Assembly (NCBI GenBank): GCA_963803805.1
Contig: CAWDOD010000002.1
Location: 64,001 to 128,000, forward strand
Direction of reading: 5' to 3'
Source of the DNA: an uncultured cyanobacterium
Lineage (GTDB): Bacteria; Cyanobacteriota; Cyanobacteriia; Cyanobacteriales; CAWCAG01
DNA length: 64,000 nt
How positions within the stretch are numbered: the first letter of the stretch is position 1; the number at the start of each line of letters is the position of its first letter. Position numbers and translations under genes: made by a program. Below, in pieces: positions 2,784 through 52,073 of this stretch. The notes under the pieces are model-generated. The model searched no databases and had not been told where the DNA came from. It was given only the letters and a program-made list of their open reading frames with translations.

Positions 2784-2815
2784 TTCCTAATTATCTCTTA
2801 TCTTATCTTATCTAT

Positions 2816-3326: not shown

Positions 3327-3359
3327 CAAGCAAAATAAAATTAGTTAAACCTAACTCTT

Positions 3360-9510: not shown

Positions 9511-11772
9511 TTGAAACGCTTGTTTATCCAGAAGGCCAAACCTACTAATCCCTGTCCAGTAGACTCTTTAGGAGATATGGCCAATCTCTCTCAAAAAGCT
9601 CTTACTGAAGACATCCTTGTTTCTAATGAAGGCAACCGTAGAGCTTTCACCTCTGCTGCCATGATTGGATTAGCTATATCGATGGGAGCCACAGGTATAT
9701 TGCTACCTAGTCAAGGAGATGAGGCTGTAGCGGCTGAATCATCTTTGGCTGAAACGGCGATTACACCAGAGGAAGTAGATAGTCTCTCTCAAACCACATC
9801 AGATTGGGAAACTGCTGCTGTTTCTACCCAAGAACAGCCAGAAGACCTCTCTGTGGTAGAAGAAACAGAAGAAGCTTTAGTTGAAAGCCAAGATTTTGTT
9901 GTACAACCTACTCTCGAAATAGAGCCAGAGCAGGAAATAGCTAAAGCTCCCCAAAACCATCATCAGCATGAAGTTAAATCTGGGGAAACTCTCTGGCAAA
10001 TATCTAAAGCATATCAAGTAACTCCTGAAGCAATAGCCGCTTCTAATCAAATTGCTCCTACTTCTAACCTTTCTGTGGGGCAGAAGTTAGATATTCCTCA
10101 AACCAACGGTATTGTTCATCAAGTAGAAGCTAGTGAGACAGTAGCATCTTTATCTCAAGACTACGGAATAGAGTCTGAAGAGATTGCTTCCTCTGTCGCC
10201 GAAGGGGAACTAGTAACTATTCCTGGTGAAGTAGACACTTTACTCAAAAACAGACAAGAAACTGCCCTAGAAAATCTTAAGCAACAGCAGGGTGAGCTAA
10301 AAGATAGCTTAGCTAAGCTACAGACAGACCCAGAGCCAAATGAACAAATACAGGCTCCTCAAATAATCGCTTCACCATCTACTCCCAAAGAACCACAATC
10401 AGTAATCATCCCCGTACCCCAACCGGAAAACTCAGCTACAGTACAACAGACAGTTGCTAGGCAAGTTCCTGTCACAATTCCCGTTCCTACACCGCAAGAG
10501 CAACCAGAACTTAATTCGGAAACCACAAGCCAAACTCCAGTAGTTGTTCCCCCTGTAACCGTAGCCACCGAAGCTACCAAAGTGCATCGTGTTAAACCAG
10601 GAGAAACCGTTGACGAAATTGCTCGTCAGTATGGCTTGAGTTTGACAGAGCTAGTCGAGGCCAATCAACTTGATAATCCTAACCGAATAGTTATTAACCA
10701 AGAAATAACTATTCCTACTCCTCAAGTTGCCCGTAGCGCTCGCCAAAGCCTTGAAAGTAAAGTAGCTGTTAATGCTCTTCCTGGAGTTACTAGTAGTCAA
10801 CCAGAAGTTCTGCCCCAGGAGATAGAGGTTTCCCCGTCTCCCCTCCAGCAAGATATTGTCAGACTACAAGCAGAATATAAGCCTCAGCAGCAAGTTAATA
10901 CCCTGGTAGCCTCTGCTGATACTTCTGCTAGAACTGAGGTTGCTGCACAGATCAATACTGAGTGGCAAACAGACAGTAGCAATGGTCAAGTTTTGGTTGT
11001 AGAAGTACAGGATCTGCGGGAAAACGTTATTAGTAGGCAGCCTGTTCAAAAGCCGATTTTGAGCGAAATTAGCTCCATACCAGTACCAACTTCTACTGAG
11101 AAAACAGATAAAGTTGAAGTAACAGCCCCTACAGCTAACTCCCTAAGACCAATATCTGCTCAGAAGCCTAACAATAACGCCGCTATTTCCATACCAGTAA
11201 CACTTCCTGTTCAAAATCAAGAGGAAGAGGAGATAGTAGCAAGCGAAGAACGAAAAACCGTAGCAGTAGCTCCTGCCCCGGCTGAAACTTATAACTCTTT
11301 GCTTAAGCCTCCAGTAGGAGAGGTTGTCAGTCCTGACTTACCTCCTCTATCTGCACCAGGTGAATACCTTCCTGATAGTCCAGCCCTTTGGAATGGCCGC
11401 CATAGCTGGCCTGCTAAGGGTGTTCTAACCTCTGGTTATGGTATGCGCTGGGGAAGGATGCACAAAGGTATTGATATTGCAGCCCCCACTGGAACCCCTA
11501 TTGTGGCTTCTGCACCTGGAGAAGTTATTACAGCAGGTTGGAACTCTGGCGGTTATGGCAATTTAGTAGAAATTCGCCATCCTGATGGTACGATGACTCG
11601 CTATGGTCACAATAGCCGCATTGTGGTCAGAAAGGGGCAAGAAGTGGAACAAGGTCAACATATTTCTGATATGGGTAGTACTGGCTACAGTACAGGACCT
11701 CATTTACACTTTGAAGTCCATCCTGGTGGTGAGAGTGCGGTTAACCCCATGGCCTACTTACCTAAACGCTAA
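9511..11772 (+). CDS. LysM-repeat M23 peptidase (NlpD-like)
   Basis: LysM domains (HEVKSGETLWQI, HRVKPGETVDEIA); M23 motifs HKGID, YGH, STGPHLHFE; in-frame TTG 9511 follows AGGAGG at 9499-9504. Confidence 0.88.
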   Translation: MKRLFIQKAKPTNPCPVDSLGDMANLSQKALTEDILVSNEGNRRAFTSAAMIGLAISMGATGILLPSQGDEAVAAESSLAETAITPEEVDSLSQTTSDWETAAVSTQEQPEDLSVVEETEEALVESQDFVVQPTLEIEPEQEIAKAPQNHHQHEVKSGETLWQISKAYQVTPEAIAASNQIAPTSNLSVGQKLDIPQTNGIVHQVEASETVASLSQDYGIESEEIASSVAEGELVTIPGEVDTLLKNRQETALENLKQQQGELKDSLAKLQTDPEPNEQIQAPQIIASPSTPKEPQSVIIPVPQPENSATVQQTVARQVPVTIPVPTPQEQPELNSETTSQTPVVVPPVTVATEATKVHRVKPGETVDEIARQYGLSLTELVEANQLDNPNRIVINQEITIPTPQVARSARQSLESKVAVNALPGVTSSQPEVLPQEIEVSPSPLQQDIVRLQAEYKPQQQVNTLVASADTSARTEVAAQINTEWQTDSSNGQVLVVEVQDLRENVISRQPVQKPILSEISSIPVPTSTEKTDKVEVTAPTANSLRPISAQKPNNNAAISIPVTLPVQNQEEEEIVASEERKTVAVAPAPAETYNSLLKPPVGEVVSPDLPPLSAPGEYLPDSPALWNGRHSWPAKGVLTSGYGMRWGRMHKGIDIAAPTGTPIVASAPGEVITAGWNSGGYGNLVEIRHPDGTMTRYGHNSRIVVRKGQEVEQGQHISDMGSTGYSTGPHLHFEVHPGGESAVNPMAYLPKR

Positions 11773-11798
11773 TTTAACTCAATAGCGAAACAATCAAT

Positions 11799-11829
11799 AA
11801 AGGGGAGTCGTTGTACTCCCCTTTGTTTT
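11799..11829 (+). terminator. Intrinsic terminator
   Basis: AAAGGGGAGT-loop-ACTCCCCTTT followed by GTTTT. Confidence 0.75.
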
Positions 11830-11890
11830 GAATAAAATTAGATTAGATGAGCTTTCTTGTGTTAAAATCAGAAACTGTTGTTAAGATCAT

Positions 11891-11964
11891 GGCTCAGTAG
11901 CTCAGTTGGTTAGAGCAGGGGACTCATAAGCCCAAGGTCGGCAGTTCAAATCTGCCTTGAGCCA
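11891..11964 (+). tRNA. tRNA-Met(CAT), probably elongator; CCA not encoded
   Basis: Acceptor GGCTCAG/TTGAGCC+A, D-arm TAGCTCAGTTGGTTAGAGC, anticodon loop CTCATAA, T-loop GTTCAAATC. Confidence 0.92.
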
Positions 11965-11999
11965 TTTTTACAGAGAAAGGGAAAGCAAGACACAAATGG

Positions 12000-13235
12000 T
12001 CATTGGCCATTAGCAATTAGCAAAACTGATTGTAGTAAGCCGATGACGAAACCGAGAATCCCCCCTAAGTTGACAATAGCTTGTAATTCACTTTTGACAA
12101 TACCTTGAACAGCTACTTCTAACTCTTGGGCGGAGGTTGATTCTACCTTGTCGGTAATTAGTTTGTCGATAGAGAGAATCGGAATAATTTGAGCAATAAT
12201 TTTTTCTAGGTCTTCTTCTAAGTAACGTTCTAAAATAAGAGCTAATTCTTGACTAACTACTTCTAAGGAGGTATTGACAGCTTTCGAGTCACGCAATCTA
12301 TTGATAATTAAGACAGATACTTTTTGCCAATCCACCGACTCACCTAAATCTTGTAAAAACTCAGTACCCTTTTCTTGAATGTAACTACGTACTGTTTCCC
12401 TGATGGTTTTCCTTAGTTGTCTGACGGTAGAGACAGGAAGATTTTGTAAGGAGAAACTTTGTAGCCAAAATTGAAGGCGATCGCGCACTTCCAAAGATAA
12501 AGTTAGTTCTTCGAGGCGGGCATTGGCAGTTTCTTTTTCTTCAATACAAAATAAGCGTAAGCGAGTTAAACTATTGCGTAACCCAAAGAGATTAGCAAAT
12601 ACCCAATAAGTACCGCTAGATTTTTCCCGGAAACCCTCATCAATAATGGCAATATTGCGGTCAGTCAGGAAATCGATAATCGCCTGTCGTAGCAAGTCTG
12701 GGGGAATGACGGTTTGGAGTAACCAATTGGAAAGTTTTCTCGCTTGTAAGGGGCGAAGCTGAAAATCTAAGAGAACTTTGTCAAATATTTGATTAATCTG
12801 CACCTCCAGAAAGTCTTCGCTTCGCGCCCAAACCTTAAGCAGACGGGGTAAAGATTGTCCTACCAAGTCTTGCAGGATATTAGCAAGAACTTTAGCGGTT
12901 TTCTGTTCTTTGTCTGCTTGAACTTGTTCGAGGGACAATTGTAGTAACCAAAAAATGGCCCCTTTAACCCTTTCTGTTTTCAGCAAACGCTTAGCCAGGT
13001 TTTGCAATTCTGTGGGGGTTAGCAAAGAACCCATGATGGTATCAGAAACTCTTTTGGCTAAACGGCCTTGATTACGGGGAATTAAGCCGGGAGTAAATGG
13101 TAAGGGCTTTTTAGCAAAATAAATAGTTCGGTACGGCCGAAAAAGCATTTTGATGGCTAAATCGTTCGTGAAATAGCCAATAATACCTCCTGCTACAGGG
13201 GGCAATAAGATAAACCAAAAATTAGATAAATCCAA
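12000..13235 (-). CDS. DUF445 family membrane protein
   Basis: [28 protein letters not shown]-terminal [13 protein letters not shown]. Confidence 0.85.
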
Positions 13236-17556: not shown

Positions 17557-18925
17557 ATGACAAATTGGTATTGGCGATCACTACCGTTAGAAAGTCATAC
17601 TGGTTCAGAAGTTTTTGCTATTCTTTTTCTTAAAAGTAATCGCATAGCAACACTTCTAGAAAGTCCTTTTCCTGCTCCTCAACCGCAATTATCTCGCTAC
17701 TCTATATGTGCTGGTTCTCCTCGTCTTAATCACCAAGGTAAACCTCAACTTTGGACTCCTCAAACAGGAAAAATTCTGCCTTTTTTACAAAGCTTGCTAG
17801 CAAAAAACAAGCAGGAAAAGGAACCAAACTTTCTCCCTTTTCAAGGTGGTTGCTTAGGTTGGCTAGGTTATGACTTAGCTTGGGAAATTGAAAAATTACC
17901 CCAATTAAACAGCAATCCTCTACCCTTTCCCATCGCTTACTGGTATGAACCCGCCTCTTTTGCTGTATTAGAATCATCTCCAACAAACTCTGTGGTTAGC
18001 AGCAAGTAAACCAAAAGAACTAAACCAACTCCAACAAGATTGGGAGACAAAGAAAAAACATCTAGAAACAATTTCTCCCATCATCCAATCCTCCCCCATT
18101 TCCTTCCTCACCTCCCAAGCAGACTACCAAGATGCTGTGGTACTAGCTAAGGAATATATTCAAAAAGGGGATATTTTTCAAACCAACCTCTCTTTGCGCT
18201 TTCAAACCTCAGCAAACGCCCCTAGCTGGTCAATTTATCGGCAGCTACAGACTATTAATCCTTCCCCCTTCGCCAGCTACTGGCAAACTCCTTGGGGAAC
18301 AGTAATTAGCTGTTCTCCAGAAAGATTAGTGCAACTGAAAGGGGAACAAGCCCAAACTAGGCCTATTGCTGGAACGCGATCGCGGGGTAAAACCCGACAA
18401 AAAGATCAACAACTAACAGAAGAACTACTCACCAACACCAAAGAAAGAGCAGAACATATCATGTTGGTGGATTTAGAAAGAAATGATTTAGGCAAAGTCT
18501 GTCAATGGGGTTCGGTGGAAGTAGACGAACTATTAACCATCGAAAAATATAGCCATGTTATGCACTTAGTAAGTAATGTCAGAGGCATTCTCCAAAGCAA
18601 TCTTGATGCCGTAGACTTAATCAAAGCCACATTTCCAGGAGGAACTATTACAGGTTGTCCTAAAGTTCGTTGTCTGGAAATTATAGAAGAACTAGAACCC
18701 CTACGACGAAATCTTTTCTACGGTTCCTGCGGCTATATCGACTATCGAGGTAATTTAGAACTAAATATTTTAATTCGTACCCTCCTTGTCTGTGGTTCCA
18801 CTGTCTGGGGGCAAGTAGGGGCAGGAATAGTCGCTGATAGCGATCCAGAAAGAGAATGGCAAGAATCTCTCCATAAAGCTGAGGCACAATTAGCTGCTTT
18901 AGGGAATATTAAAATACCTCTTTAG
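17557..18925 (+). pseudogene. Anthranilate synthase component I / PabB-like gene, frameshifted near 17972 (pseudogene or assembly error)
   Basis: N-part LLES, RYSI, PFQGG.LGWLGYD; C-part SPERLV, TRPIAGT, KERAEHIMLVDLERNDLG, FPGGTITGCPK; removing one A in GAATC (17971-17975) joins the frames. Confidence 0.8.
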
Positions 18926-26170: not shown

Positions 26171-26743
26171 TCATTCTAATTTTGCTTCTTTTTGCTTGCT
26201 AATCACATCTAAGGCGAAACCTACACCTTGGGAAGCTAAGGTTTTGACAACTTCTGGTAAATCCCTGAATTCGTAGGGTCTAGAATCATGAGGTTCTTGC
26301 TCTAAGATTAAACCCCTTTTGCGCAAATATGCTCTGACTATGGTTACTGCTTGGTCAGTTTGCAGTTTGCCATCATCATTAATAATTTCTTCTGCCAAAG
26401 GACAAATACTAAAAAATCTGGCTAAACATTGGGAATAGGTTTTCGGATCAAGGCGCATCAAGACGCGACGAATGGTGCTGTAGGAAGGCAATGTCTCTTT
26501 GTCTAAACCTAATAATTCGATTAAGTCGCTGCTGTAAATATCTATCCAGTCCCCAACAGCTAAAACTCCTCGATTCCCAGCAGCGATCGCCAGGGTAAAC
26601 AAAGCAAGACAAAGAGATTGACTGTGGCGCTGTCCAGCTTTCCGGCGGGAGTCAGGTAGGTTGGAAAATGCTTCAATAATTGCTGCCTGGTTCATCAGAA
26701 TTTCCCTACAAGATTCGACATACATAGAATTTACTTCTACCAT
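26171..26743 (-). CDS. ISAs1-family transposase-derived protein, C-terminally truncated (start may be 26695)
   Basis: LPDSRRKAGQRH, PSYSTIRRVL..LD, DDGK, AY....GLIL.Q, ALDV...QK follow the order of ISAs1 N-terminal motifs; no IS ends recognised. Confidence 0.7.
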   Translation of the reverse strand: MVEVNSMYVESCREILMNQAAIIEAFSNLPDSRRKAGQRHSQSLCLALFTLAIAAGNRGVLAVGDWIDIYSSDLIELLGLDKETLPSYSTIRRVLMRLDPKTYSQCLARFFSICPLAEEIINDDGKLQTDQAVTIVRAYLRKRGLILEQEPHDSRPYEFRDLPEVVKTLASQGVGFALDVISKQKEAKLE

Positions 26744-26934: not shown

Positions 26935-27507
26935 CTAATCAGGAAGAGCAAACCCTGTACGAGGATCGCGAATATATAAACCGAGAACTAAAGAGTTTAT
27001 TACTGTATCCCAGACAGGAATTAGCTTCTTGGCTTCGTCAGCCCAGTAGTCAAAGGTGATCAAACACTGAACTCCAGAGCCTAAGCCAATGCAGATTCGT
27101 GAGTAGGCTTCACGATCTTCTTGAGGATCAATAAATTTAATTTGAGTCCAGACAACACGGGCTGTTTGGCGCTTTAGTTGAACAATTTTTCCTCGTTCAA
27201 TAACATTTCGTTCTTCATCCTTAATAACTTTTCTTAACAGAGGAACTAAGGGAAATTCCTGCCAGTTACCGGGAGGCAAAAGGTTGAAAGAAGCTTCTAA
27301 ACGACAGTTATCATCAGGGGGCTTACCATCCAAAAATCGAAATGATTTTTCATCAGGTTCAAAATGCCAATCGTGGGGAACATCGAAGCGTAATGCTCCC
27401 CTTCCCGCCACAAAAATTCGATTTCCTGGTTGTGATTGCCAGCGATGGTTTTCTTCTAATTCCAGGGTTTCTTTAATCCACCGACTTTTTTTCTTACGTT
27501 TAGACAC
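26935..27507 (-). CDS. Hypothetical protein, possibly PsbP/DcrB-like fold
   Basis: 190-aa ORF; FDVPHDW near the N-terminus and WDTVINSLVL near the C-terminus; fold is an inference. Confidence 0.7.
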   Translation of the reverse strand: MSKRKKKSRWIKETLELEENHRWQSQPGNRIFVAGRGALRFDVPHDWHFEPDEKSFRFLDGKPPDDNCRLEASFNLLPPGNWQEFPLVPLLRKVIKDEERNVIERGKIVQLKRQTARVVWTQIKFIDPQEDREAYSRICIGLGSGVQCLITFDYWADEAKKLIPVWDTVINSLVLGLYIRDPRTGFALPD

Positions 27508-27685
27508 GGCTGTCCTAATTTTGACCTACTTTCATTTATTTTAAGGCTTACTCAGGAAAAAACAGGAATATAGATAATACGGAGGCGATAATTTTTTTTA
27601 GTTTCATTGACTAAGTTGAGTTTTGCTAGTTAACCAAGTTAAACTCTGTACTTAGTAAATAAGCGTTAGGCATCAAGCTCAATTG

Positions 27686-27862
27686 ATGAAAAAGTCCCAC
27701 TTCAATATTGATAAAGTTCAAGAACCGATTACTCAAGCACCTCCTAAGATTAGAAACTTAATTGAGGGAGTTTTAGCTTTAGAAAAAGAGCGGCTCCACC
27801 AAAAAGCACCGCGCAATATTAATGAAGAGGTTCTGAAAATAATTAAAGACATTGTGCAATGA
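27686..27862 (+). CDS. 58-aa small protein, not in the ORF track
   Basis: MKKSHFNIDKVQEPITQAPPKIRNLIEGVLALEKERLHQKAPRNINEEVLKIIKDIVQ; TGA overlaps the next ATG (ATGA 27859-27862). Confidence 0.8.
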   Translation: MKKSHFNIDKVQEPITQAPPKIRNLIEGVLALEKERLHQKAPRNINEEVLKIIKDIVQ

Positions 27863-29922
27863 TACTAACATCAATTAGGTTGTGTAATTTTCGCCAATTC
27901 TATGGCAAAACTCCAGAAATACAACTTTCTGTGGGTAAGCATAACACTAGTGTCTTTCACGGTAATAATGGCTCAGGCAAGACTACTTTACTTAATGCTT
28001 TTACTTGGGCTTTATATGAACAATTTACTGCTGCTTTTGCTTCTCCGCAACAGTTAGTTAATAAAAGAGCAATTACTGAAACTGAATTTGGTCGTTCTGT
28101 AGATTGTTGGGTAGAAGTAATGTTTGAACATGAACATAAGCGCTATCAAGTGAAACGCCAATGTTATGCCCATAATACTGGAGAAAGAATCAATTACAGC
28201 CCTACAAAATGTTTTATGCAAATAGCTGGGGATGATGGGCGTTGGTATCCGCCCTTAGAGCAGCCAGAAGATGTTATTGGGAGAATTTTGCCAGTAAGTT
28301 TACATCGCTATTTTTTCTTTGATGGAGAACGCATTGATCGCTTCTTTCGTCAGGATGGTAAAAGTAGTGTTGCAGAGGACACGAAGGAGTTGATTGGGGT
28401 TAAGGTATTAGATCGGGCTATTGAGCATTTAAAAAAAGCAAAACGCAAACTACAAGAAGAGTTACAATCTGTTGGCAATTTAGAAATAAAGCAGCTTTTA
28501 CAAGCAAAAAGTAAGTTAGAAAACCAAAGTGATGACCTCGAACTTAGGCAAAGAGAAATAGATGCTCAATTAGCTCAGCAAGAAAAGTTTAAACGAACCA
28601 TTGGTAAGCAGCTTTTGGCATTAAGTGGTGCAGTGGAATTGCAGAACCAGCGAGAACAATTAGAGGAAAGAGAAAAGTCTTTGCGTAATCTTTTAGTAGA
28701 GGAGCAAGAAACTTTGAAAAAAATCTTTTCTACTAATGGTTATACTGTTTTATTAGACCAACTATTAATTCAATCACGCTCTATAGTTGGCGAAATGCGA
28801 CTCAACGGAGAGTTGCCTACAGGGATTAAAAAACAATTTGTCGAGGAATTATTAAAGCAAAACCGTTGTATTTGTGGTGGGGAACTTTTAAAAGGAAGTG
28901 AGACTCGTAGAGCAGTAAAAGCTTGGCTGGATAAAGCGGGGGTTGCTGATCTAGAAGAAGCCGCTATTCGCTTAGAAACCCAAGCAGGAGAAATGGAACA
29001 GAAAATTCCACGGTTTTGGCAAGAAGTTGATTCACAGCAATCTAATATTGAGCAAGCTAGGGCAGAATTAGGAGATATTGATGAGCAATTGTACGCTATT
29101 GGTAAAAAATTAAGAAGTTATCCTGATCAAGATATTCAAAAGTTGCAAAACCATTTGGAAGTAACAGAAAAGCTCATTGAACAACTAACTTTAGAAAAAG
29201 GAGGTAATCAACAAATATTAGTTAGCTTAAATAAAGAAAATGAAGTCAAGCAAAAGCAAATAGCCAAGCAAAAACTTAAAGAAGCAAAGCAAGTTATCGC
29301 TCAACGTAGAATTACAGCTACTCAAGAAGCAATAGAAAGGATTGTGGCAGTTAAAAAGCTCTTAGAAAAGCAATTTCGTCGTTCTTTAGAACAAAGAGTT
29401 CAAGAAATTTTTGATTCCATTTCTTTTACCCCTTACACACCTAGATTGAGCGCTGATTATGAATTGTCCTTAATAGAAAACACCTCTGGCAAAGCAATTC
29501 GAGTTGCTGCTTCTACAGGAGAAAATCAGATTCTTAGTCTTTCTTTTATTGGCGGCATTATTGATAGAGTCCGGGAATGGAGTTATCAAAATACTCTTAT
29601 GGGACCAGATAGTAGTACCTTTCCTATTGTCATGGATTCACCTTTTGGTAGTTTGGATCAAATTTACCGTCGCCAAGTAGCCACTTCTATTCCTAAACTA
29701 GCTAATCAACTCATAGTTTTGGTAACTAAAACTCAATGGCGAGGAGAAGTAGCAGAGGAAATGGAGAATTATATTGGCCAAGAATATGTCTTAGTTTATA
29801 ACTCCCCAAAATTAGATTGCCAAGAAGATCAAATAGAAATTGTTGGACAAACTTATCCTCTGGTAAAACGTAGTAACAATGGCTTTGAGTATACAGAAAT
29901 TATTCCCGTAGAACGGAATTAG
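27859..29922 (+). CDS. Rad50/SbcC/DndD-like coiled-coil ABC ATPase with CxC hook
   Basis: NFRQFYG, Walker A GNNGSGKTT, FFFDGE, coiled coils around RCICG, signature ASTGE, Walker B/D-loop IVMDSPFGSLD. Confidence 0.88.
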   Translation: MILTSIRLCNFRQFYGKTPEIQLSVGKHNTSVFHGNNGSGKTTLLNAFTWALYEQFTAAFASPQQLVNKRAITETEFGRSVDCWVEVMFEHEHKRYQVKRQCYAHNTGERINYSPTKCFMQIAGDDGRWYPPLEQPEDVIGRILPVSLHRYFFFDGERIDRFFRQDGKSSVAEDTKELIGVKVLDRAIEHLKKAKRKLQEELQSVGNLEIKQLLQAKSKLENQSDDLELRQREIDAQLAQQEKFKRTIGKQLLALSGAVELQNQREQLEEREKSLRNLLVEEQETLKKIFSTNGYTVLLDQLLIQSRSIVGEMRLNGELPTGIKKQFVEELLKQNRCICGGELLKGSETRRAVKAWLDKAGVADLEEAAIRLETQAGEMEQKIPRFWQEVDSQQSNIEQARAELGDIDEQLYAIGKKLRSYPDQDIQKLQNHLEVTEKLIEQLTLEKGGNQQILVSLNKENEVKQKQIAKQKLKEAKQVIAQRRITATQEAIERIVAVKKLLEKQFRRSLEQRVQEIFDSISFTPYTPRLSADYELSLIENTSGKAIRVAASTGENQILSLSFIGGIIDRVREWSYQNTLMGPDSSTFPIVMDSPFGSLDQIYRRQVATSIPKLANQLIVLVTKTQWRGEVAEEMENYIGQEYVLVYNSPKLDCQEDQIEIVGQTYPLVKRSNNGFEYTEIIPVERN

Positions 29923-30202
29923 TTACTTCTCTAGAGCGATAATTATTACTTCTTCTGCTAGGACGTTCCCTAGCTTTGTTAACTCTTAATTCTCGGTTTA
30001 TCCATTCAGCACCATCTAATGCTTCTATAGCTGCTGATTCTTCTTCTTCTGAAGCAGAATCAACAAAACCAAAACCTCGCATACGGCCAGTTTCTCGGTC
30101 AGTTGGGATTGCGACTCGCTTCACGCTGCCGTAATCAGAAAAGATATATTTAACATCTTCTTCTGTTACGCTGTAGGGTAAGTTACCGATGTAAATTGAC
30201 AT
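29900..30202 (-). CDS. RRM RNA-binding protein (cyanobacterial Rbp family)
   Basis: RNP2 IYIGNL, RNP1 RGFGFV, DGAEW..RELRVNKA. Confidence 0.92.
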   Translation of the reverse strand: MSIYIGNLPYSVTEEDVKYIFSDYGSVKRVAIPTDRETGRMRGFGFVDSASEEEESAAIEALDGAEWINRELRVNKARERPSRRSNNYRSREVTNSVLRE

Positions 30203-30448
30203 GAATTCTTTACAAGCAATCGAGCGAAAGGGACAAAGATTATTTCTCAGTTAGGAGTTTGAAGTATTAATTTAATTACTAATACTTGTAATTGCCTAAT
30301 CTTTATGTAATTTAACACGAATATAAATTCCAGGAAACTACTTAGTAAGAAGTCAAGCCATTGTGCTGAATTTTTACGACAAATGTAGTAAGTAGTATGT
30401 AATCTATCTTACTAAAATGAACTAATTTTTTTGAGCCATATAGTATTA

Positions 30449-39110: not shown

Positions 39111-42100
39111 ATGTCTAAATCTGAATCTGATCATTCTTCATCACTATCTTCACAAGATAGCAAGAAATTCTTTGTTGTTGGTGTTGGTGCTTCTGCTGGT
39201 GGGCTGCGCGCATTAGAAGAGTTTTTTGAGAATATGCCCACAGATAGCGGGGCGGCTTTTATTACTATTCAACACCTCTCCCCAGACTTCAAGAGTTTGA
39301 TGAAAGAACTCTTGGAGCGGCACACGGAGATGAGTATTCATAAAGTGGAGGATGGCATGAGATTGCAGTCTAACTCCATCTATTTAATCCCTCCAGGGCA
39401 AAATCTGGTTGTTGAAGAGGAACAGTTACGCTTACAAAAAAGAGAAGATAAAATTTATCATCGCCCTAATTTTCCTATTGATCTATTTTTCAAATCTTTG
39501 GGGAAAAATTATCAAGAACGAGCTATTGGGGTAGTTCTTTCTGGAACTGGTAGCGATGGCACTCAAGGTTTACGAGACATTCATGAAGCTGGGGGTATTA
39601 CCCTAGTTCAAGAGCCAAGTACTGCTGAATTTGATGGTATGCCTCGCAGCGCGATCGCCACAGGAGTGATTAACCGAATTCTCTCACCGCGAGATTTAGC
39701 TGAAACTATTTATCAGTTTTTAAAATCCCCCACAAATCCTGACAAGTTTAGTCAGCAGCAAGCACTTTCTTCTAATTCTCCAGAATTACAAAATATTACT
39801 AGCCTGCTAGCACGCTACAAACAAGTAGATTTTTCTCACTATAAAAGTAATACCTTAAGTCGGCGTATTCATCGCCGTTGCTTAATCACAGGTTGTACCA
39901 CTATAGAAGAGTATATTGAGCTTCTGGAAATATCGGCTGAGGAACGAGAAATTCTCCGGGGTGACTTACTAATTGGTGTAACTAATTTTTTCCGCGATCG
40001 CCCTGCTTGGGACTTTTTAGCTAAAAATGTTATTGACAACCTATTAAAGCAAGCCGAATCTGGGCAAGAGTTAAGATTTTGGATTACAGCTTGTTCTACG
40101 GGTGAAGAAGCTTATTCTTTAGCCATTTTGGTAGATGAGGCTATTTCTAAATTCAATAAGCGAGTTAAAGTCAAGATTTTTGCTACGGATATTAACCGCC
40201 TGGCTTTAGAGAAAGCTGCTCAAGGAGTTTATCCAGAAAACATCGCTAATGAAATTAACCAAGAGCGCTTGGCAAAATATTTTACTCCCAAAGAAGAAGG
40301 CTTTCAAGTGAGTCGGAAACTACGGGAGATGTTGATTTTTGCTCCTCACGATTTAACCAAAGATGCTGGTTTTACTCGCATTCACATTATTAGTTGTCGC
40401 AATGTTTTGATTTATATGCAGCCCCAGTTGCAACAACAAGTTTTGCGTAATCTTCACTTAGCTTTAACAGTTAAAGGGACTCTTTTCTTAGGAGAGTCAG
40501 AGACGTTAGGAGATTTTAATGAGGAATTTGTTACTCTGCACAAAACCTGGAAGCTTTATCAGAAAAAACGGGATGTGAGGTTGAATTTGCCTTTGCGGGG
40601 AGTTGAGAAACTCGGCACTAATATGGTGAATCCTCCTAGTGAGAAGAAGATTAGTACTAGCAGAAGAGAACCCGTACTAGAAGCTGCTTTAAACTTGGTT
40701 TTAGAACAGCAGAAAAGCACCTGTTTGTTGGTAAATAATGAGAATCAGGTTTTGTATTTATTTGAAGATTTGGCTAATGTCTTGAAACTACCTACGGGGG
40801 AATTATCTAGGGATGTTAATAAGCTAGTCATTTCCGCCTTGAAACTACCTTTGAATACGGCGCTTCACCGAGCAAAAAAAGAGAAAAAACCGATTCTTTA
40901 TACAGGTATTAAACTGGATCAAGAAGATGATAGCCGCAGAGTCAACCTCAAAGTTAGCCGGAATAAAACCAACAAACTGGCTGGAGATTTTTTGATGGTG
41001 ACGATTACTGAAAATAATCAATCTCCTCCCTCTAAATTAGTTGGTGAAAGCTTTGAGGCTGATGCAGAAACGGCCCAACGTATTACAGAATTAGAAGAAG
41101 AATTACAACATAGTAGTGAAAACCTACAAGCAGTTATTGAAGAATTAGAAACAACTAATGAAGAACAACAAGCTACCAATGAAGAGTTAATTGCTTCTAA
41201 TGAAGAGTTGCAAAGTACCAATGAAGAACTACATTCAGTTAATGAAGAGTTATATAGCGTTAACAGGGAGTATCAAGCGAAAATTCAACAGTTAACTCAA
41301 CTCAATGATGATGTAGATAACTTACTTAGTTCTATAGATATTGGGGTAGTGTTTTTAGATAAAGACTTGAAAATTCGTAAATTTACCTCCGCCGCCACAG
41401 AAGCAATTAATTTAGTTGAGGCAGATATTGGTCGTCCCCTCAAACACCTTTCCCATAATATGGACTGCAATAATTTACTAGAAATGTTGCAGGAAGTTGT
41501 TGAAATTGAAGAGCCTTTGGCAAAGGAAGTCAAGTTAGTAGAAACAGATACGAATCTTTTACTACGCATTCATCCCTATCGCCAAAATGAAGGCTTTAGT
41601 GATGGGATTGTCCTAACTTTTGTTGATATTGACGATATTAAGAAAGCAGAAGAAGCCCTGAAACAAGCAGAAGAAGATTTGCGTCGGGCGAATGAAAGTT
41701 TAGAAAGGAGAGTAGAAGAACGTACTGCGGCCTTGCAAGAAAGTAAAGAACGCTTCCAGGCAACCTTTGAACAAGCAGCAGTGGGTATTGCCCATGTTTC
41801 CCTAGAAGGGAAATGGTTAAGGGTGAATGGCAGGATTTGTGACATTATTGGCTATACCCCAGAAGAACTACTCCAACTAACTTTCCAGGATATTACTCAC
41901 CCCGATGATTTAGAAGCTGATTTAGGTTATGTGAAGCAAATGTTGGCCGGAGAAATTAACAATTACTCTATGGATAAACGCTACATCCATAAAAATGGCG
42001 TGGAGGTGTGGATTTGCTTAACTGTATCTCTAGTCAAAACTAAGACAGGAAAGGCAAAATACTTTATTTCTGTAGTAGAAGATATCAACGAACGCAGGCA

Positions 42101-44054
42101 AATTCAAGAACAACTACGCCAAGCCAAAGAACACCTAGAGTTGCGAGTAGAAGAACGCACTGCAGATTTATATGAAAGTCAAGAAAGATTATCTTTGTTT
42201 ATCCAACACGTTCCAAGTGCGATCGCTATGTTTGATTCCCGAATGTGTTACTTAGCTACTAGTCGCCGTTGGCTGATTGATTATAACCTTTCCCAAGAAG
42301 ATATTATTGGCCGCTCCCACTACGATGTTTTTCCCGAAATTCCTGAACGTTGGCAAGAAGATTACCGCGAGGTTCTCCAAGGAGGAACTGTCAAATCAGA
42401 AGAAGATAGCTTTGTTCGTGAAAATGGTGATATAGATTGGCTACGCTATGAACTTCGTCCTTGGTTTACCAAAGAAGGGACAATTGGCGGTTTGATTATG
42501 TTCACAGAAGTAATCACAGAAATGAAACAGGCAAAAGAAGCTTTACGCCAAGCTAACTTAGAATTGGAACAAAGGGTTAGTGGGCGTACCGCAGAACTTG
42601 AGGCAGCTAAAGATAAAGCGGAGGCTGCTGATCGGGCAAAGAGTGCTTTTATTGCCCATATGAGCCATGAGTTACGCACTCCCTTGAATGGGGTTTTAGG
42701 ATTTGCTCAAATTCTCAAACGAGATTCGACTTTAACCCCGAAGCAATTTAACGGTATTGACATTATTCAAAAATCTGGCAGCCATTTACTAACTTTAATT
42801 GAAGACATTCTTTATATTGCTAAAATCGAAGCGGGTAAATTGGAATTACAGAAGAGTGAGTTTCATTTCCCCTCTTTTCTCGATAACCTCATTGCTTTAA
42901 TTAGCGTCCGTGCCGAACAAAAGGGCATTGCTTTTAATTATCAAGCTCTTTCTGGACTACCTACCACTATAAAAACAGATGAAACTCGCCTGCGGCAAAT
43001 TCTTCTTAATTTACTTGGTAATGCCGTTAAATTCACCCTAACTGGCGGTGTTGTTTTTAAAGTTGGTTATTTAACTAGTTTTGAACCAGATACGAAAACT
43101 ACTAATTCACCTAGCATTATCAGATTTTATATTGAAGATACAGGGCCCGGTATTCCCCCAGAGAAGTTAGAAGAAATATTTTTACCTTTTCAGCAAATAG
43201 TAGATAGCCATATCCCCAATAAAGGCACAGGATTAGGTTTAACTATTAGTCAAAATATTGCTGAACAAATGGGCAGTGAAATTCAAGTAACTAGCCAATT
43301 AGAAAAGGGTAGTAGCTTTTGGTTTGATCTAGAGATTCCTGAAGTTGCGGGTAATACTGTGGGGGACGAAGGGGCATTCCCTCCTACAAGTCCTCAAATG
43401 AAAGGATATAAGGGAAAAAGACATAAAATCTTGATAGCAGATGATCAACCTAATAATCGTGCTGTTTTAGTTAATTTACTAAGTCCTTTGGGTTTTGAGA
43501 TATCAGAAGTAAGTAATGGTGCAGAAGCTTTAACCAAAGCCAAAGAATTTCAGCCAGATTTAATTTTATTAGATTTAGTAATGCCAGTTTTAGATGGCTT
43601 TGAAGTAGCCAGAAGATTGCAACAGGAGCCTACTTTGCAAGATAAAATAGTCTTTGCTATTTCCGCTAGCGCTCTTCCTAAAGACGAGTCTTATAGTTAT
43701 CGAGCTGGTTGCCATGCTTTTTTACCCAAACCAGTTAACTTCGACCAACTTTTAGAGTTAATTCAAACTCATTTAGAATTGGAATGGAGTTATGGTGAAA
43801 ATACGCTCTTAATTTCCCCTCAAGAAGAACCTAGGGAAAAAACCTCTTTCCCTACTTGCCCTAACCAGGAAGTGACAGTTTTATTGTTCGATTTAGCTAA
43901 ACGAGGGGATATCAGAGGCATCTTGGAGCAAGCTACTCAGTTAGAACAACAAGATGAGAAATTTATTCACTTCGCCAATGAAGTTAGCCAGCTAGCCCAA
44001 AGCTTTCAAATTCAGAAATTACAACAATTCTTACGTAAGTGTAGAGAATTATAA
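39111..44054 (+). CDS. CheB-CheR-PAS hybrid histidine kinase with receiver
   Basis: CheB GASAGG/QHL/GSDG; Che[36 protein letters not shown] coil; PAS domains; SHELRTPL; HATPase; REC DLVMP. Confidence 0.92.
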
Positions 44055-44257
44055 AAGCACATTGCTCCACTTTAAAAAAGAAAAATATACATCATATACA
44101 TTAATGTAAACACTAGCGCAAACCTTAAAGCGTCATAAATAGAAGATATACAGCTAGTAACTTGTAGAATTTAGTATCTTAACTACTGAGGCAATTTTAC
44201 TAAATCAACTTACTGAGTTGTTTTAACTAGGCTTAGGTAGGAATAAACTTTTAGTTT

Positions 44258-45502
44258 ATGGACGCAGTTTGGGATCAACTAACTCATAAAAAAGCCTTTC
44301 CAGAAATAGGTGTCGGTTTGTATAAACTTGATAAAGCTAATTCCGATGTTATCTTAATTGTGGATGATACTCCTAGCAATTTACAGGTTTTATTTGCTTG
44401 TTTAGAAAGTACAGGCTTTAAAGTCTTAGTGGCGCAAAATGGAGAAGATGCCCTACAAATAGCCACATCAGAAATTCCTGACTTAATATTATTAGATATA
44501 CTAATGCCAGGTATGGATGGCTTTGCTGTTTGCAGCCAATTGAAGGCTAATACTCAAACTGAACATATACCTGTTATTTTTATGACAGCCCTCACTGAGA
44601 CTATTAAAAAAGTTAAAGGTTTTGAAGTGGGGGGAATTGATTATATTACTAAACCTATTGAACAAGAAGAAGTTTTAGTTCGTATCCGTACCCATCTTAA
44701 ATTGCAAAAGATGCAACAGTATATCCAAGGGCAAAACGAACAACTTCAATCAGAAATTCATCGTCGCCAACAAGCAGAAGAAGAACTTGTTAAAGCATTA
44801 GATAAAGAACGGGAACTCAATCAACTTAAGTCCCACTTTATTGCTATGACTTCCCATCAATTTCGTACCCCTTTGACTACAATTCTCGGCGCTACAGAAT
44901 TACTTCAATCTTATAGCGATCGCCTTAGTTTAGAGAAGAAGAAAAATCATTTCAGCCGTATTAGAGATAATGTCGGACACATGACTCAAATGCTAGATGA
45001 TATCTTGCTTATTGGTCAAGATGAAGCAGAAGAGTTGAATTTTAATCCTACTCCTCTTAATGTCCTCGAATTATGTCAAAATTTGGTGGCAAATTTCCAA
45101 GATAGTAGCAAGAGTCAACCCATAATTGCTTTTACTCATCAAGGAGTTTGCACTGAAGATAGCAGTAAATGGCCTTTAGTAGATAAAAAAATTCTTAACC
45201 ACATCCTTGATAATTTACTCTCCAATGCTCTGAAATATTCACCAACCGATAGTCAAGTGGATTTTGTTTTAGAATGTCAAGCAGAGCAGATAACTTTTCA
45301 GATTAAAGACCGAGGAATGGGTATTCCTTTAGCAGATCAAAAACACCTTTTTGAACCATTTTATCGTGCTAGTAATACTGATTCGGTGCATGGTACAGGC
45401 TTAGGATTAACTATTGTCAAAAAAGCAGTGGATTTGCACGGTGGAAAAATCACTTTTGAAAGTAACCCCGGCATTGGTACTACTTTTACTGTTACAATTT
45501 AA
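44258..45502 (+). CDS. REC-HisKA-HATPase hybrid kinase
   Basis: [39 protein letters not shown]. Confidence 0.92.
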   Translation: MDAVWDQLTHKKAFPEIGVGLYKLDKANSDVILIVDDTPSNLQVLFACLESTGFKVLVAQNGEDALQIATSEIPDLILLDILMPGMDGFAVCSQLKANTQTEHIPVIFMTALTETIKKVKGFEVGGIDYITKPIEQEEVLVRIRTHLKLQKMQQYIQGQNEQLQSEIHRRQQAEEELVKALDKERELNQLKSHFIAMTSHQFRTPLTTILGATELLQSYSDRLSLEKKKNHFSRIRDNVGHMTQMLDDILLIGQDEAEELNFNPTPLNVLELCQNLVANFQDSSKSQPIIAFTHQGVCTEDSSKWPLVDKKILNHILDNLLSNALKYSPTDSQVDFVLECQAEQITFQIKDRGMGIPLADQKHLFEPFYRASNTDSVHGTGLGLTIVKKAVDLHGGKITFESNPGIGTTFTVTI

Positions 45503-45850
45503 GACAAGATTCTTACAACCAAAGCCACATTTTGTCAACAGGGGATTAAATTTAGTCCCAAAAATAAGTAATTGTATTATAAATTGTAGTATTGCAAATT
45601 TTCTGTCCCAAAGCTGTTTGATTTCAGTCAAAGCCCCATTTTACATCGATTTTGCTCAGTTAAAGATGGCTTTAGGCACAGAAAAGCCCAATATATCATT
45701 GTTTATAAATCTTGATTAATTCTATTACAAAAGAAACCCCTGTCAATACCTTGTTAAATCGTTCTCAACATAACTTCATAAAGATGCTCAAAAATTTCTG
45801 AAGTTTAAATGGTTTAAACCTTGACTACAAGAAAGGAAAGTTTTACTTAT

Positions 45851-45989
<139 letters not shown>

Positions 45990-46337
45990 GCTTCGGAGTT
46001 GGAAAGAATTTGATAAGTTTGGAGCTAACTTATCTAACAGAATCACTGTCGCTGATATGAGTTCGCGGAGCATTGCTGTAGGCTTATCGGTCTTAGATAA
46101 TAAAATGCTGTCCCTATAGAATAAAGTAGGACTTACGCAGTGAGTCGAATTTAGTATCAAATAGAATTGCTATAGATACTTGGTGCTTTTGATACAACTT
46201 GAGGATTACTTACAAATAATACACAGATAGAGAATTATTTGAAGCTAACATGAAAGAACTTACATTACAAGTAACTCTTCGTCCTTTATAAAGATTAAGT
46301 TAGTTTTAAGTTGCTATAAGGAGAATCTCAAAAAATA

Positions 46338-49300
46338 ATGACAGCGAAACTGACAAAGCAAATTAGTCAGTTAAGAGCAACTCTAGGCACTATGGAAGTC
46401 GCATTAGGAGAAGTGGGGGATGCTATTACCTGGACTGACGCACTCGGTCGTATACAGTGGTGTAATGCCGCTTTTGCTGACTTAGTTGGGCAACCCCACA
46501 TAACTATTTTAGGTACTCCTTTAACTGAATTATTACCTTTAACTAAGGGAAGCGAATCCGTTAAACCAGAATTTCATCCCCTTAATCAAGCATTAAAAAA
46601 GCAAACTAAAGGCAAAGAATGTTACGAATATAATCGTCATGACAAGATAATTAGCTTAGAAATATCTTGGTCATACTTGCATATTAATAACTCTACTGAA
46701 CCAAAGGAAACAATTAGGACGGTTATTGTCATCCGCGACATCACAACCTACCAACAAGTAGAAGATATTTTACAATGTCGAGTAGCCCAACGAACGAAGG
46801 AATTAACCCTTGCCAACGAACAACTACAACGAGAAAAAGATTATTTTAGCGCTACATTTGACCGTGCTGCGATAGGCATTGCTCGTATTAGTTTAGAGGG
46901 GAAGTTTCTACGGGTTAATCCGAAACTTTGCCAAATTGTTAATTACTCTCAAGAAGAACTTAAGCAAAAGACTTTTATTGATATTAGCTACCCTGAAGAT
47001 TTAGAGTTGGATAGAGAATATGTAGGGCAATTACTAGCAGGGAAAATCTCTACCTATTGTCGAGAAAAAAGATATCAAACCAAAGATGGTTCCCTGATTT
47101 GGGTCAAGGTAACAGTCTCTTTAGTTTACCAAACTTCTGGTCAGCCGGACTATTTTATTTCAATCATCGAAGATATTAGCTTGCATAAACAATCTGAGCA
47201 AGCAATTCGTACCACAACCTCACGACTCACTGCCTTAATTAAAAATCTGCAAGCGGGGGTACTATTAACCAATGAATCTGGCAAAGTCATCTTAGCTAAC
47301 CAGAAATTTTGTCATCTTTTTCAAATTACAGTTTCTCCCGAAGAATTGATTAATCTAGACTGTCTGGAAATTGCTCAAAATACCCACCAAGTTTTAGTTA
47401 ATCCTCAAGAATATATTGCCAGAATTGAAACTATTATTGCTCAGCAGCAAATTGTCATCAACGAAGAGTTAAACTTAGTTGATGGCAGAACTGTTGAGCG
47501 TAATTATGTACCGATTTTTATTGAAGAAAGTTACTATGGTCATCTCTGGCTCTATTGGGATACAACAGAACGTAAGCAGAGTCAAAAGTTATTACAAAAG
47601 CAGTATCAACAAACCCTATTATTAAAGCAAATTACCGAGGAAATTCGCCGCAGTTTAGATACAAAAAAAATTCTTCAAACTACAGTGACAGAAGTAAGTA
47701 AAGCTTTTGAGGTTAGCCGTTGTGTAATTTACAATTATCAAGAACAACCAACTTCTCAACTCAACTGTTTAGCTGAATCTTTAAATGGTGAGTATAGCTC
47801 AATTCTAGATATAAATATCCCAGTTGCAGATGATGCCTTCGCCCAACAAGTTTTTGCCTGTGACAAAGCTGTTGCTGCCGATGATGTTTATCAAAATCCT
47901 CGACTTAAGTCATCTGCTCAAATCTGCCGTCAAGTAGACTTAAAATCGATTTTAGCTGTCCGTACTTCCTATCAAGGTAAACATAATGGCGTACTTGCTT
48001 TACATCAATGCGATCGCTTCCGCCACTGGAGTCGTGAAGAAATTGAACTCTTAGAAGCGGTTGCCAGCCAAGTAGGTATCGCCCTTGCCCAAGCTAGACT
48101 CCTAGAACAAGAAACTAGACACAAAAAAGCGGCTGAAGCTGCCAACAGAGCTAAAAGCGAATTTCTAGCCACTATGAGCCATGAAATACGCACTCCCATG
48201 AATGCTACCATCGGCATGACAGGAATCCTTTTAGATACGCCTTTATCCCCTCAACAAAAGGGTTATGTGGAAATTATCCGTAACAGTGGTGAAGCTTTAC
48301 TGGTAATTATTAATGATATCCTTGATTTTTCTAAAATTGAGTCAGGGAAACTAGAATTAGAAGAGCAACCCTTTGAATTGCAAGTCTGTCTAGAAAATGC
48401 TTTAGATTTAATTGCCCCAGAAGCAACAGAAAAAGGACTAGAGTTAGTTTATACCGTTGAGCCAAAGATTCCTACCCTTTTATTAGGAGATGTGACAAGG
48501 CTACGCCAAATCTTAGTTAATCTCCTCAGTAATGCTCTCAAATTTACCGCTACAGGAGAGATTGTGGTAGTAGTTTCCCTAGTTGAACAAAGCCAGGATA
48601 ATCTGTATACCATTCAATTTAGCGTCAAAGATACCGGTATTGGTATTTCTGGTGAACAACAGCAACGCCTCTTTAAATCTTTTAGTCAAGTTGATACCTC
48701 TACAACCCGTGAATATGGCGGTACAGGTTTAGGTTTAGCCATCAGCAAGCGTTTAACGGAAATGATGGGAGGTTGTATGTGGGTTGAAAGTGAACTTGGG
48801 GTTGGCTCAACTTTTTATTTTACAACTTCATTTCCCTTAGCGCCTGCTTCCGGGGCAAGTAATCGCCATGGTTGCGAGACGAATTTAGTCGGGAAACGTC
48901 TGCTTATTGTGGATGATAATGCTATCAATCGCCAATTTTTAACCCACCTTACCCAAGCTTGGGGTTTAGTAGCGATAACTGCTGCTTCTGGTTTAGCAGC
49001 CCTGGATTTACTCAAAGAAGATGATGGCTTTGATTTATTAATTTTTGACTTGCGAATGCCGAAAATGGATGGTTTTCACCTTGCTAAAGCTGTTCGCTGT
49101 CTCCCAACTTATCAACAAGCACCGATTATCATGATTACAGCTTTAGGTTTAGTGGCTAAAGATGTAGATCCCCATCGAGAAGTTAACTTTGCTGCCTGGT
49201 TGCAAAATCCAGTAAAAAAGTCCCGACTTTATGAAGCAATCGTTGATATTTTTGCTCAACCTGCAACACCTGAATTTAGCTCTAGGGAATCGGAAACTGC

Positions 49301-51069: not shown

Positions 51070-51072
51070 ACC

Positions 51073-52017: not shown

Positions 52018-52073
52018 CAACCAATATCTTGTTTGCCCTTGCTAGAGGCTAAAATGCTTAATGATAAATGACA

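Follow-up and report, generated by a model that had tools for sequence, protein, structure and literature searches.

The closest described counterpart of the genes discussed here is PbeABCD of haloarchaea, whose components go under "dnd-associated" in NCBI annotation. As set out in the available part of PMC10853773, it comprises an HKD nuclease plus superfamily 2 (SF2) helicase (PbeA), a small protein (PbeB), a CxC ATP-binding cassette (ABC) ATPase (PbeC) and a cognate of DndE (PbeD). All four pbe genes are required for antiviral protection in a haloarchaeon, in which PbeB has 66 amino acids and PbeD 152 (PMC6459918, in the portion at hand). The subject of this analysis is a two-gene locus of an uncultured cyanobacterium, in a stretch of 64,000 nucleotides of contig CAWDOD010000002.1 (positions 64,001 to 128,000; hereafter the window): a gene for a small protein of 58 residues, coupled to a gene for a 687-residue coiled-coil ATPase. 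The interpretation that we favour, at a probability of roughly 70%, is that the pair constitutes the invariant, translationally coupled core of a cyanobacterial system centred on a CxC ABC ATPase, that the partner genes of this core are dispersed, that the small protein sits on the neck of the ATPase, and that the system serves DNA surveillance.

The kind of system is already known, and its ATPase clade has PADLOC models as well as NCBI and JGI names. What carries the interpretation is the company that the ATPase keeps. Comparisons below refer, unless otherwise said, to the best 80 loci of a scan with one genome per species, in which at least 585 species proved to have a relative; the ATPases of these loci are 55-66% identical to that of the window, and Nostocales and picocyanobacteria are not among the 80. 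The open reading frame (ORF) of the small protein lies directly 5' of the ATPase gene in all 80, and on the ATPase tree this adjacency is never lost.

The gene pair and its ATPase

The two genes and their junction are as follows.

27686..27862, + strand: gene for the small protein, 58 amino acids from its ATG; predicted helix-loop-helix; holds the position of PbeB in PbeABCD
27859..27862, + strand: ATGA stop/start overlap of the two genes (translational coupling), from the ORF coordinates
27859..29922, + strand: gene for the CxC-type coiled-coil ABC ATPase (PbeC family), 687 amino acids

The pair are the sole genes on the + strand between two minus-strand neighbours, and an in-frame TTG lies 3 nt 5' of the ATG start of the small protein. 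The initial annotation, made from the letters of the window, had described a 58-residue ORF coupled through ATGA to a 687-residue ATPase, with flanking genes on the opposite strand on both sides and a unit of two genes; within the window, the ORF coordinates agree with it on each of these points. The motifs that it listed in the ATPase are also all in place, with the CxC in the turn between the long helices of an AlphaFold2 model:

27961..27987, + strand: Walker A, GNNGSGKTT, residues 35-43; N37, G38, G40 and K41 invariant in 66/66 aligned homologues
28312..28329, + strand: FFFDGE motif, residues 152-157; F152, F153, G156 and E157 invariant in 66/66
28351..29421, + strand: coiled-coil insert, residues 165-521; AlphaFold2 helices 165-315 and 363-521
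28387..28452, + strand: ascending neck helix, residues 177-198, predicted contact of the small protein (complex-model interface, column identity)
28864..28878, + strand: RCICG, putative CxC zinc hook, residues 336-340; C337 and C339 invariant in 66/66; non-helical turn 316-362
29296..29385, + strand: descending neck helix, residues 480-509, predicted contact of the small protein (complex-model interface, column identity)
29509..29523, + strand: deviant ABC signature ASTGE, residues 551-555; S552, G554 and E555 at least 90% conserved
29632..29658, + strand: Walker B/D-loop, MDSPFGSLD, residues 592-600; D593, F596 and G597 invariant in 66/66

The ATPase is no orphan: it belongs to the CxC-ABC (PbeC) family, of which it is the ordinary orthologue in cyanobacteria. 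It matches the PADLOC PbeC model PDLC02753 over residues 1-647 with an expectation value (E) of 3.5e-292 and 968.6 bits; 14 PbeC models rank above the best PADLOC DndD model (E 1.1e-40), and some 830 bits separate the best PbeC model from the best DndD model. Pfam recognises only the generic AAA_23, AAA_15 and SMC_N. The AlphaFold2 model, built on 66 homologues (mean predicted local-distance difference test score, pLDDT, 86.7), has an N-lobe (residues 1-163), ascending helices (165-315), a turn (316-362) with C337-I-C339 at the apex, descending helices (363-521) and a C-lobe (526-687). The coiled-coil insert of about 357 residues in this model agrees with the roughly 400 residues that characterize the family. 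The residue that follows the Walker B Asp in MDSPFGSLD is Ser, not Glu. The ATPase would bind DNA and hydrolyse ATP, and its CxC hook would bind zinc. Foldseek places the model closest to Rad50 (7zr1_C, E 1.3e-16) and next to SMC, MukB, JetC and LmuB; the closest PDB sequence match is likewise to Rad50, in the N-lobe (E 5e-10), and PDB searches by fold and by sequence turned up no structure of the PbeC/CxC family.

Two other identities have been or could be given to this protein. The common database annotation makes it the ordinary DndD of DndABCDE phosphorothioate modification: many homologues go by "DNA sulfur modification protein DndD" at JGI, the TIGR03185 DndD model of NCBIfam and the PADLOC DndD models do find it (E 6e-45 and 1e-40, respectively), a canonical DndB gene lies near one Microcoleus locus, and a Microcoleus cluster is labelled dndBCDE in the accessible text of PMC8546630. 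We nevertheless rate this identity as improbable. The TIGR03185 match, at 153.9 bits, falls below the family cut-off of 245.85 and the PbeC models score far higher; the CxC hook, which is invariant here, is absent from DndD according to the available part of PMC10853773; and none of the 42 window ORFs scanned with PADLOC matched DndC, DndE or DndA. That the protein might be the SbcC/Rad50 ATPase of double-strand-break repair is suggested by its nearest fold and by its hook and coiled coil, and is scarcely credible in view of NCBIfam scores of 37.1 and 36.6 bits for Rad50 models whose cut-offs are 1087 and 1000, and of 33.3 bits for SbcC (cut-off 478.5). Moreover, the hook has the CxC spacing instead of CxxC, the coiled coil extends for only about 357 residues, and there is no adjacent gene for SbcD/Mre11.

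The small protein and the ATPase neck

At 73 of the 80 loci the stop codon of the small-protein ORF and the start codon of the ATPase gene overlap as ATGA (L023 read by eye); gaps of 13-72 nt separate the two at six loci and a gap of 1361 nt at the remaining one. This last locus, of Moorena sp. SIO3I8 (L029), is the sole one at which the pair is split: an ORF of 421 residues encoding an RRXRR (IscB-like) protein (1861-3488; PF14239, E 1e-42) is inserted exactly between the two genes and alters the final residues of the small protein.

The nucleotide differences among 67 small-protein sequences, over a 48-codon core, amount to 0.251, 0.145 and 0.506 per site at codon positions 1, 2 and 3, with stops in the +1 and +2 frames of all 67. 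Mean nonsynonymous and synonymous divergence (dN and dS; 72 usable of 150 sampled pairs) are 0.199 and 1.821, giving a dN/dS of about 0.11, a rough ratio since dS is near saturation. By these substitution patterns the small protein is under purifying selection and its ORF is a genuine conserved coding gene. An alignment of 60 proteins has a mean column identity of 71%, and the consensus core reads VQEPITxAPPEVRxIIERVLQLEKDKLYxKxPRNINDDILKIIKEVVQ, from which the window protein deviates at few positions (for example, K21 for E). About 48 conserved residues are predicted to form a helix-loop-helix (AlphaFold2 pLDDT 81.5; helices 20-35 and 45-57) without a strand; the protein is neutral by count of charges and has neither a membrane segment nor a catalytic motif. 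In 38/75 copies (for example, L064, 5729-6004), all from the Oscillatoriales/Coleofasciculaceae clade, the N terminus is extended by some 25 conserved residues (...FRY...ILAEKRSSY...); the clade of the window is without this extension.

The small protein finds no family in Pfam, NCBIfam or PADLOC, the window copy being without a PADLOC match even at E <= 1, and no Pbe model is matched at that threshold by any of five small-protein sequences; the DpdH match of the fifth, from the Lyngbya clade (E 0.0013), is at chance level and was discounted. A word-index protein search returned only the protein itself and one relative 83% identical, which is no sign of rarity: the search requires shared 5-mers and small ORFs are sparsely annotated. 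The only named copy seen carries the label hypothetical, and look-alikes in the Atlas are "hypothetical" clusters of 57-59 residues (scores 0.87-0.89), to be taken as a lead only. A fold search of the PDB gave no match at E <= 0.001 (the best, a DPY-30 docking domain at E 2.5, is not significant) and a profile search of PDB sequences gave nothing meaningful. The idea that the small protein is half of a DndE, a single ribbon-helix-helix unit, was considered and dropped: hhalign against the TIGR04062 proteins described below returned a probability of 0.1%, and the model is without a strand.

Coiled-coil necks are where Rad50 binds the helix-loop-helix of Mre11 and where SMC proteins bind kleisin, and a similar place is predicted for the small protein. 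Complex prediction with custom alignments and one copy of each chain (that is, a monomeric ATPase) gave an ipSAE (interaction prediction score from aligned errors) of 0.62 in three runs out of three, as against 0.00 for the best of three controls; the runs share at least 87% of their contacts and the partner pLDDT is 76. In a benchmark, 116 of 157 solved complexes reached this mark, as did 2 of 215 mismatched pairs. Residues 6-39 and 45-58 of the small protein are modelled in contact with residues 177-198 and 480-509 of the ATPase, the coiled-coil helices just above the head, with a few additional contacts to the head itself (138-145 and 573-582). Over 36 cyanobacterial rows, the 29 coiled-coil positions of the interface have a mean column identity of 0.87, compared with 0.82 in the ATPase head and 0.66 elsewhere in the coiled coil. 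Binding of the small protein to the neck, as a putative four-helix bundle, is thus supported by the model. Two of the Foldseek matches, 3qku and 5da9, are presumably Rad50-Mre11 hairpin complexes, as their titles indicate, with a similar geometry at the base of the coiled coil.

Partner genes, inheritance and surroundings

The partners of the pair were named after clustering the ORFs of the 80 loci. The most frequent is an SF2 helicase of 429-526 residues, encoded directly upstream on the same strand at 46 of the 80; another 27 have no upstream helicase despite a flank of at least 2.5 kb, and at seven the flank is too short to judge. Two examples exceed the cut-off of 600 bits for TIGR04095 ("DNA phosphorothioation system restriction enzyme"), with 634.6 and 658.1 bits. 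These two also match the PbeA model of PADLOC (E 1e-157 to 1e-160), in an alignment that spans only positions 241-681 of the 682 in the profile; an HxK(x)4D motif is missing from all 46 adjacent helicases, whose motif I begins at residue 39-109. Because of this partial match, the missing motif and the early motif I, the HKD nuclease part is absent from the helicases of the cyanobacterial clade. Among the best 120 matches the helicases are 66-86% identical. Downstream, 30 of the 80 loci encode a protein of 153-156 residues that matches TIGR04062 ("DNA phosphorothioation-associated protein 4"; 177-193 bits for two examples, cut-off 74), which its size and place suggest to be the cognate of DndE/PbeD. 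At 36 loci it is missing although the downstream flank extends for 3 kb or more, and PDB sequences gave it chance matches only. Bare pairs like that of the window, with adequate flanks on both sides, make up 17/80. On the ATPase tree, helicase adjacency has changed at least eight times (69 rows) and linkage of TIGR04062 at least six times (64 rows).

Microcoleus and its allies have further neighbours: an EEP nuclease gene at 16 loci, a DGQHR/DndB-like gene on the opposite strand at 20, and Uma2 genes. At one Microcoleus locus (L063, 13254-14054 together with 9108-13006), the CxC module is followed by the TIGR04062 gene, the EEP nuclease gene, an opposite-strand DGQHR gene and then a canonical DndB gene (E 9e-90); the CxC module there abuts a classical dnd cluster. 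The dndBCDE label given to a Microcoleus cluster in PMC8546630, as far as its text is available, fits these neighbours. Uma2 genes (DUF820, "putative restriction endonuclease") have been repeatedly inserted beside the operon, at 29/80 loci (for example, L060, 8057-8713, and L002, 5103-5720), and one of them, in Microcoleus, overlaps the ATPase stop codon by 10 nt. In the window, a Uma2 gene (1247-1825; PADLOC label PDC-S03) lies 26 kb from the pair.

The helicase is retained, though unlinked, in the genomes of relatives with bare pairs. Three assemblies hold a bare pair with a helicase on another contig (L004 with helicase P0376, L027 with P0392 and L052 with P0345). In the closest relatives, Spirulinaceae metagenome-assembled genomes (ATPase 87% and small protein 83% identical), the accessions of the small protein and the ATPase are consecutive and that of the helicase, P0313, is some 500-1570 accession numbers away. 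Another helicase, P0334, is 88.9% identical to P0313, in parallel with the 87.3% identity of the two ATPases, and may be the helicase of the window's organism.

Inheritance of the pair looks vertical. All loci among the 80 whose titles name an organism are from cyanobacteria, the titles of four reading only "uncultured bacterium", and there is one locus per species genome. A FastTree phylogeny of 76 ATPases (L023, L038, L040, L046 and L051 left out) tracks taxonomy: 27 genus labels require 27 changes, the minimum being 26 and the mean for shuffled labels 38.5, with none of 200 shuffles as low. It divides into two clades, Chroococcales/Pleurocapsales/Spirulina, which includes the window, and Oscillatoriales/Coleofasciculaceae. 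The best 120 matches listed by a word-index search with the ATPase are all full length (685-702 residues), the 119 non-self ones 60-87% identical and every named one cyanobacterial; a search of representatives at 50% identity yields 989 clusters at E <= 1e-30. A monophyletic, vertically inherited clade of cyanobacterial "DndD" has been reported (PMC8569181, in the part available), and would be the same gene under another name.

In Okeania and Dapis the junction of the two genes is tandemly repeated ahead of an intact ATPase gene, in copies of about 170-190 nt. Each copy contains the first 27 or so ATPase codons and a CTTCTTA-like simple repeat, and the extra copies end in a short dead-end ORF. 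The repeats are at the following places.

L038, 6001-6372: tandem junction repeats, three starts
L040, 5834-6981: tandem junction repeats, five starts
L046, 6001-6330: tandem junction repeats
L051, 6001-6306: tandem junction repeats

The immediate surroundings of the pair in the window are these.

26171-26743, - strand: ISAs1-family transposase fragment, 190 amino acids, DDE_Tnp_1_assoc only; flanked by the genes for aldehyde deformylating oxygenase and the Alr1449-like protein
26935..27507, - strand: Alr1449-like gene, 190 amino acids, 5' neighbour of the pair; Atlas look-alikes are Alr1449-domain proteins (score 0.99)
27508..27685, + strand: spacer that separates the small-protein gene from the divergent Alr1449-like gene; presumed, by position, to be the promoter region
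29900..30202, - strand: gene for an RRM RNA-binding protein (rbp), convergent 3' neighbour; Pfam and NCBIfam matches

The 3' ends of the ATPase and rbp genes overlap by 23 nt (29900-29922). A sigma-70 scan of 27300-30400 found no + strand site in the presumed promoter region and five sites in all, not above the count in shuffles (7.8 +/- 2.6); the terminator count is not above shuffles either, and the one terminator-like hairpin (29957-29974) lies inside the convergent rbp gene. The G+C content, 36.8% in the pair as against 39.3% in the window, gives no sign of an island, and the surroundings are housekeeping genes: alkane synthesis, accA, cyanophycin synthetase, trmD, thiC and others. A convergent rbp neighbour is common to five of the 80 loci (L003, L012, L014, L022 and L041). 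Two of these five, from Spirulina, keep a helicase upstream; local synteny, with a shared downstream rbp and an upstream helicase in these two, is in keeping with a rearrangement confined to the upstream side. The ISAs1 fragment may mark the rearrangement that parted the pair from its helicase.

Elsewhere in the window, a two-component signalling cluster (39111-55819) includes a CheB-CheR-PAS-histidine kinase-receiver fusion of 1647 residues and hybrid kinases; weak PADLOC matches to SduA and PD-T4-6 were traced to receiver domains of two-component proteins and are not defence genes. Component I of anthranilate synthase is found in two + strand ORFs, 17557-18009 (N-terminal, 150 residues) and 18137-18925 (chorismate-binding, 262 residues), parted by a 127-nt gap; the gene may be split or disrupted.

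Function and known systems

How such a system might work can be pictured as follows. Two ATPase chains would be joined through zinc in their CxC hooks and by ATP-driven engagement of their heads, and the joined ATPases would clamp or scan DNA in the manner of Rad50. The small protein, made in step with the ATPase, would be a stoichiometric subunit occupying the neck, from which it might gate, or bridge to, a helicase encoded in trans; the complex would work with that SF2 helicase and, in genomes that have one, with a TIGR04062 protein. Its output would be DNA surveillance, whether as restriction of foreign DNA on the pattern of PbeABCD or as domesticated genome maintenance. We regard the cyanobacterial system as a vertically inherited, dispersed and nuclease-poor variant of a known system, whose role may lie in defence or in genome maintenance.

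The same machine might have another job, that of a domesticated, vertically inherited complex for genome maintenance or chromosome organization; this concerns function only, not identity, and we hold it to be possible, if somewhat doubtful. In its favour are an ATPase tree that follows taxonomy with one locus per species genome, high conservation (of the ATPase across the 80 loci, and of the helicase among its best 120 matches), the housekeeping neighbourhood in the window and a helicase that has lost its HKD nuclease domain. Components that have been separated at least eight times (helicase) and at least six times (TIGR04062) are unusual for horizontally selected defence operons, and the vertically inherited "DndD" clade, as far as the available text of PMC8569181 describes it, points the same way. 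In opposition to this, Microcoleus and its allies keep the genes beside an EEP nuclease (16 loci), Uma2, DGQHR/DndB-like and canonical DndB genes; the homologous PbeABCD is experimentally antiviral (PMC6459918, again in the portion at hand); and the best 80 loci, which include neither picocyanobacteria nor Nostocales, do not make the system universal. That the pair is instead an autonomous two-gene defence module, with the small protein as effector or toxin, was one of two suggestions of the initial annotation. We find it very improbable, even though the two genes are alone on their strand in the window, 17/80 relatives are also bare pairs and the coupling is tight: a neutral helical hairpin of 58 residues with neither a membrane segment nor a catalytic motif, predicted to lie on the ATPase neck, gives no sign of being an effector, and genomes with bare pairs keep a helicase.

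Several points weigh against our preferred reading, that of a dispersed DNA surveillance system with the pair at its core. Defence activity of the pair is putative, as are its binding of DNA and zinc and its hydrolysis of ATP. None of the helicase, TIGR04062, DGQHR and EEP homologues is found in the 64-kb window (tblastn, E <= 1e-3; PADLOC, 42 ORFs), no helicase among the best 120 matches is on the window's own contig, and the window's organism, to judge from its relatives, would encode the helicase, and probably also the TIGR04062 protein, outside these 64 kb. None of 18 TIGR04062 members matches Pfam DndE. The small protein has no detectable sequence similarity to anything named (no PADLOC match at E <= 1 for four small proteins), and its putative homology to haloarchaeal PbeB is suggested by position and size (58 against 66 residues). 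The complex prediction, with the ATPase as a monomer, may owe its outcome to Rad50-Mre11 or SMC-kleisin complexes already familiar to the predictor, and the necks of such ATPases tend toward conservation anyway, so that conservation of the interface lends it weak support. Finally, the available part of PMC10853773 describes the Pbe small protein as fast-evolving and largely disordered, whereas the one found here is conserved and folded, and the CxC ATPases as "universally linked" to DndE, which holds neither for the window nor for the 36/80 loci that lack a TIGR04062 gene despite a downstream flank of 3 kb or longer.

The claims of the initial annotation that reach beyond the ORFs have fared unequally. 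The small ORF is the genuine coupled partner that it was taken for, conserved and always ahead of the ATPase gene, and the expectation that a Rad50/DndD-like ATPase of this family normally works with an SF2 helicase, which can be encoded elsewhere, is borne out by TIGR04095 helicases adjacent at 46/80 loci and unlinked in the closest relatives. "Stand-alone" describes the gene order in the window and is weakened as a claim because canonical partners adjoin the pair in many relatives or, like the helicase of the closest ones, lie elsewhere. The refuting condition that the annotation itself had set, with regard to partners encoded elsewhere, tells against that claim in the same way; as for an ordinary SbcC or DndD orthologue, the ATPase scores below the NCBIfam cut-offs of both families. 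Vertical inheritance and the housekeeping neighbourhood make the label of defence insecure, in favour of which stand the antiviral precedent of PbeABCD and the nuclease-rich clusters of Microcoleus. Of the checks that it proposed, complex prediction favoured the pair over its controls; profile and structure searches placed the ATPase as PbeC- and Rad50-like and gave the small protein no family and no significant fold match.

Three points appear to be new: a conserved, folded mini-protein is the sole invariant partner of the CxC ATPase in cyanobacteria, with a modelled docking site on its neck; the cognate helicase of the cyanobacterial clade is without a nuclease domain; and the components have been repeatedly separated yet retained. 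No paper on these cyanobacterial features was found, and Krishnan et al. 2020 or the supplement of PMC10853773 may already cover some of them. Because the genes have been repeatedly separated and retained, and inherited vertically, the "defence" and "DndD" labels that annotation pipelines automatically attach are open to question. The locus also provides a testable handle on the role of the enigmatic Pbe-type small protein. A further speculation, which we think unlikely as a whole, is that a Pbe-type anti-invader module has become a vertically inherited, nuclease-free, Rad50-like DNA scanner for genome maintenance in polyploid cells, in which the small protein of about 58 residues would be an obligate third subunit that mimics the Rad50-binding hairpin of Mre11 (or the neck contact of kleisin), so that it, and not DndE, would be the universal partner.

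For the favoured surveillance system, several known systems offer comparisons. LmuB of Lamassu and JetC of Wadjet are also DNA-sensing coiled-coil ABC ATPases with separate effector subunits, and the window ATPase matches them structurally (E ~1e-11); they differ in having no hook of the CxC type and other sets of partners, and they are not in the best 25 of the 69 PADLOC families matched. Rad50-Mre11/SbcCD has the same bipartite ABC head, antiparallel coiled coil and apical cysteine hook and provides the top structural matches (7zr1, 9q9h and 3qku); the predicted site of the small protein at the base of the coiled coil resembles that of the Rad50-binding helix-loop-helix of Mre11. In contrast, the window ATPase has CxC and not CxxC, a much shorter coiled coil and a hairpin partner with no fused nuclease, and its sequence similarity to Rad50 is confined to the N-lobe. 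DndD of DndABCDE is a sister clade of coiled-coil ABC ATPases, alignable with it over the full length and sharing FFFDGE and the D-S/T-P style of Walker B, but the window ATPase falls below the DndD cut-off, has a CxC hook, has no DndC, DndE or DndA neighbours and is partnered by a 58-residue hairpin instead of DndE. PbeABCD comes closest. The cyanobacterial version differs from it in a helicase that lacks the HKD part (HxK(x)4D in 0/46), in a small protein that is conserved and predicted to be folded, not rapidly evolving and disordered, in genes that are often unlinked (the window holds two of the four, with no adjacent dndCDEA, on whose phosphorothioate marks PbeABCD depends) and in an inheritance that looks vertical. 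It resembles PbeABCD in an ATPase with a CxC hook that PbeC models recognise over nearly its entire length, in a small-protein gene directly before the ATPase gene, as pbeB is before pbeC, and, in relatives of the window, in a PbeA-like SF2 helicase encoded upstream and a protein of about 155 residues encoded downstream, close in size to the 152-residue PbeD of the haloarchaeal system as given in the part of its description at hand.

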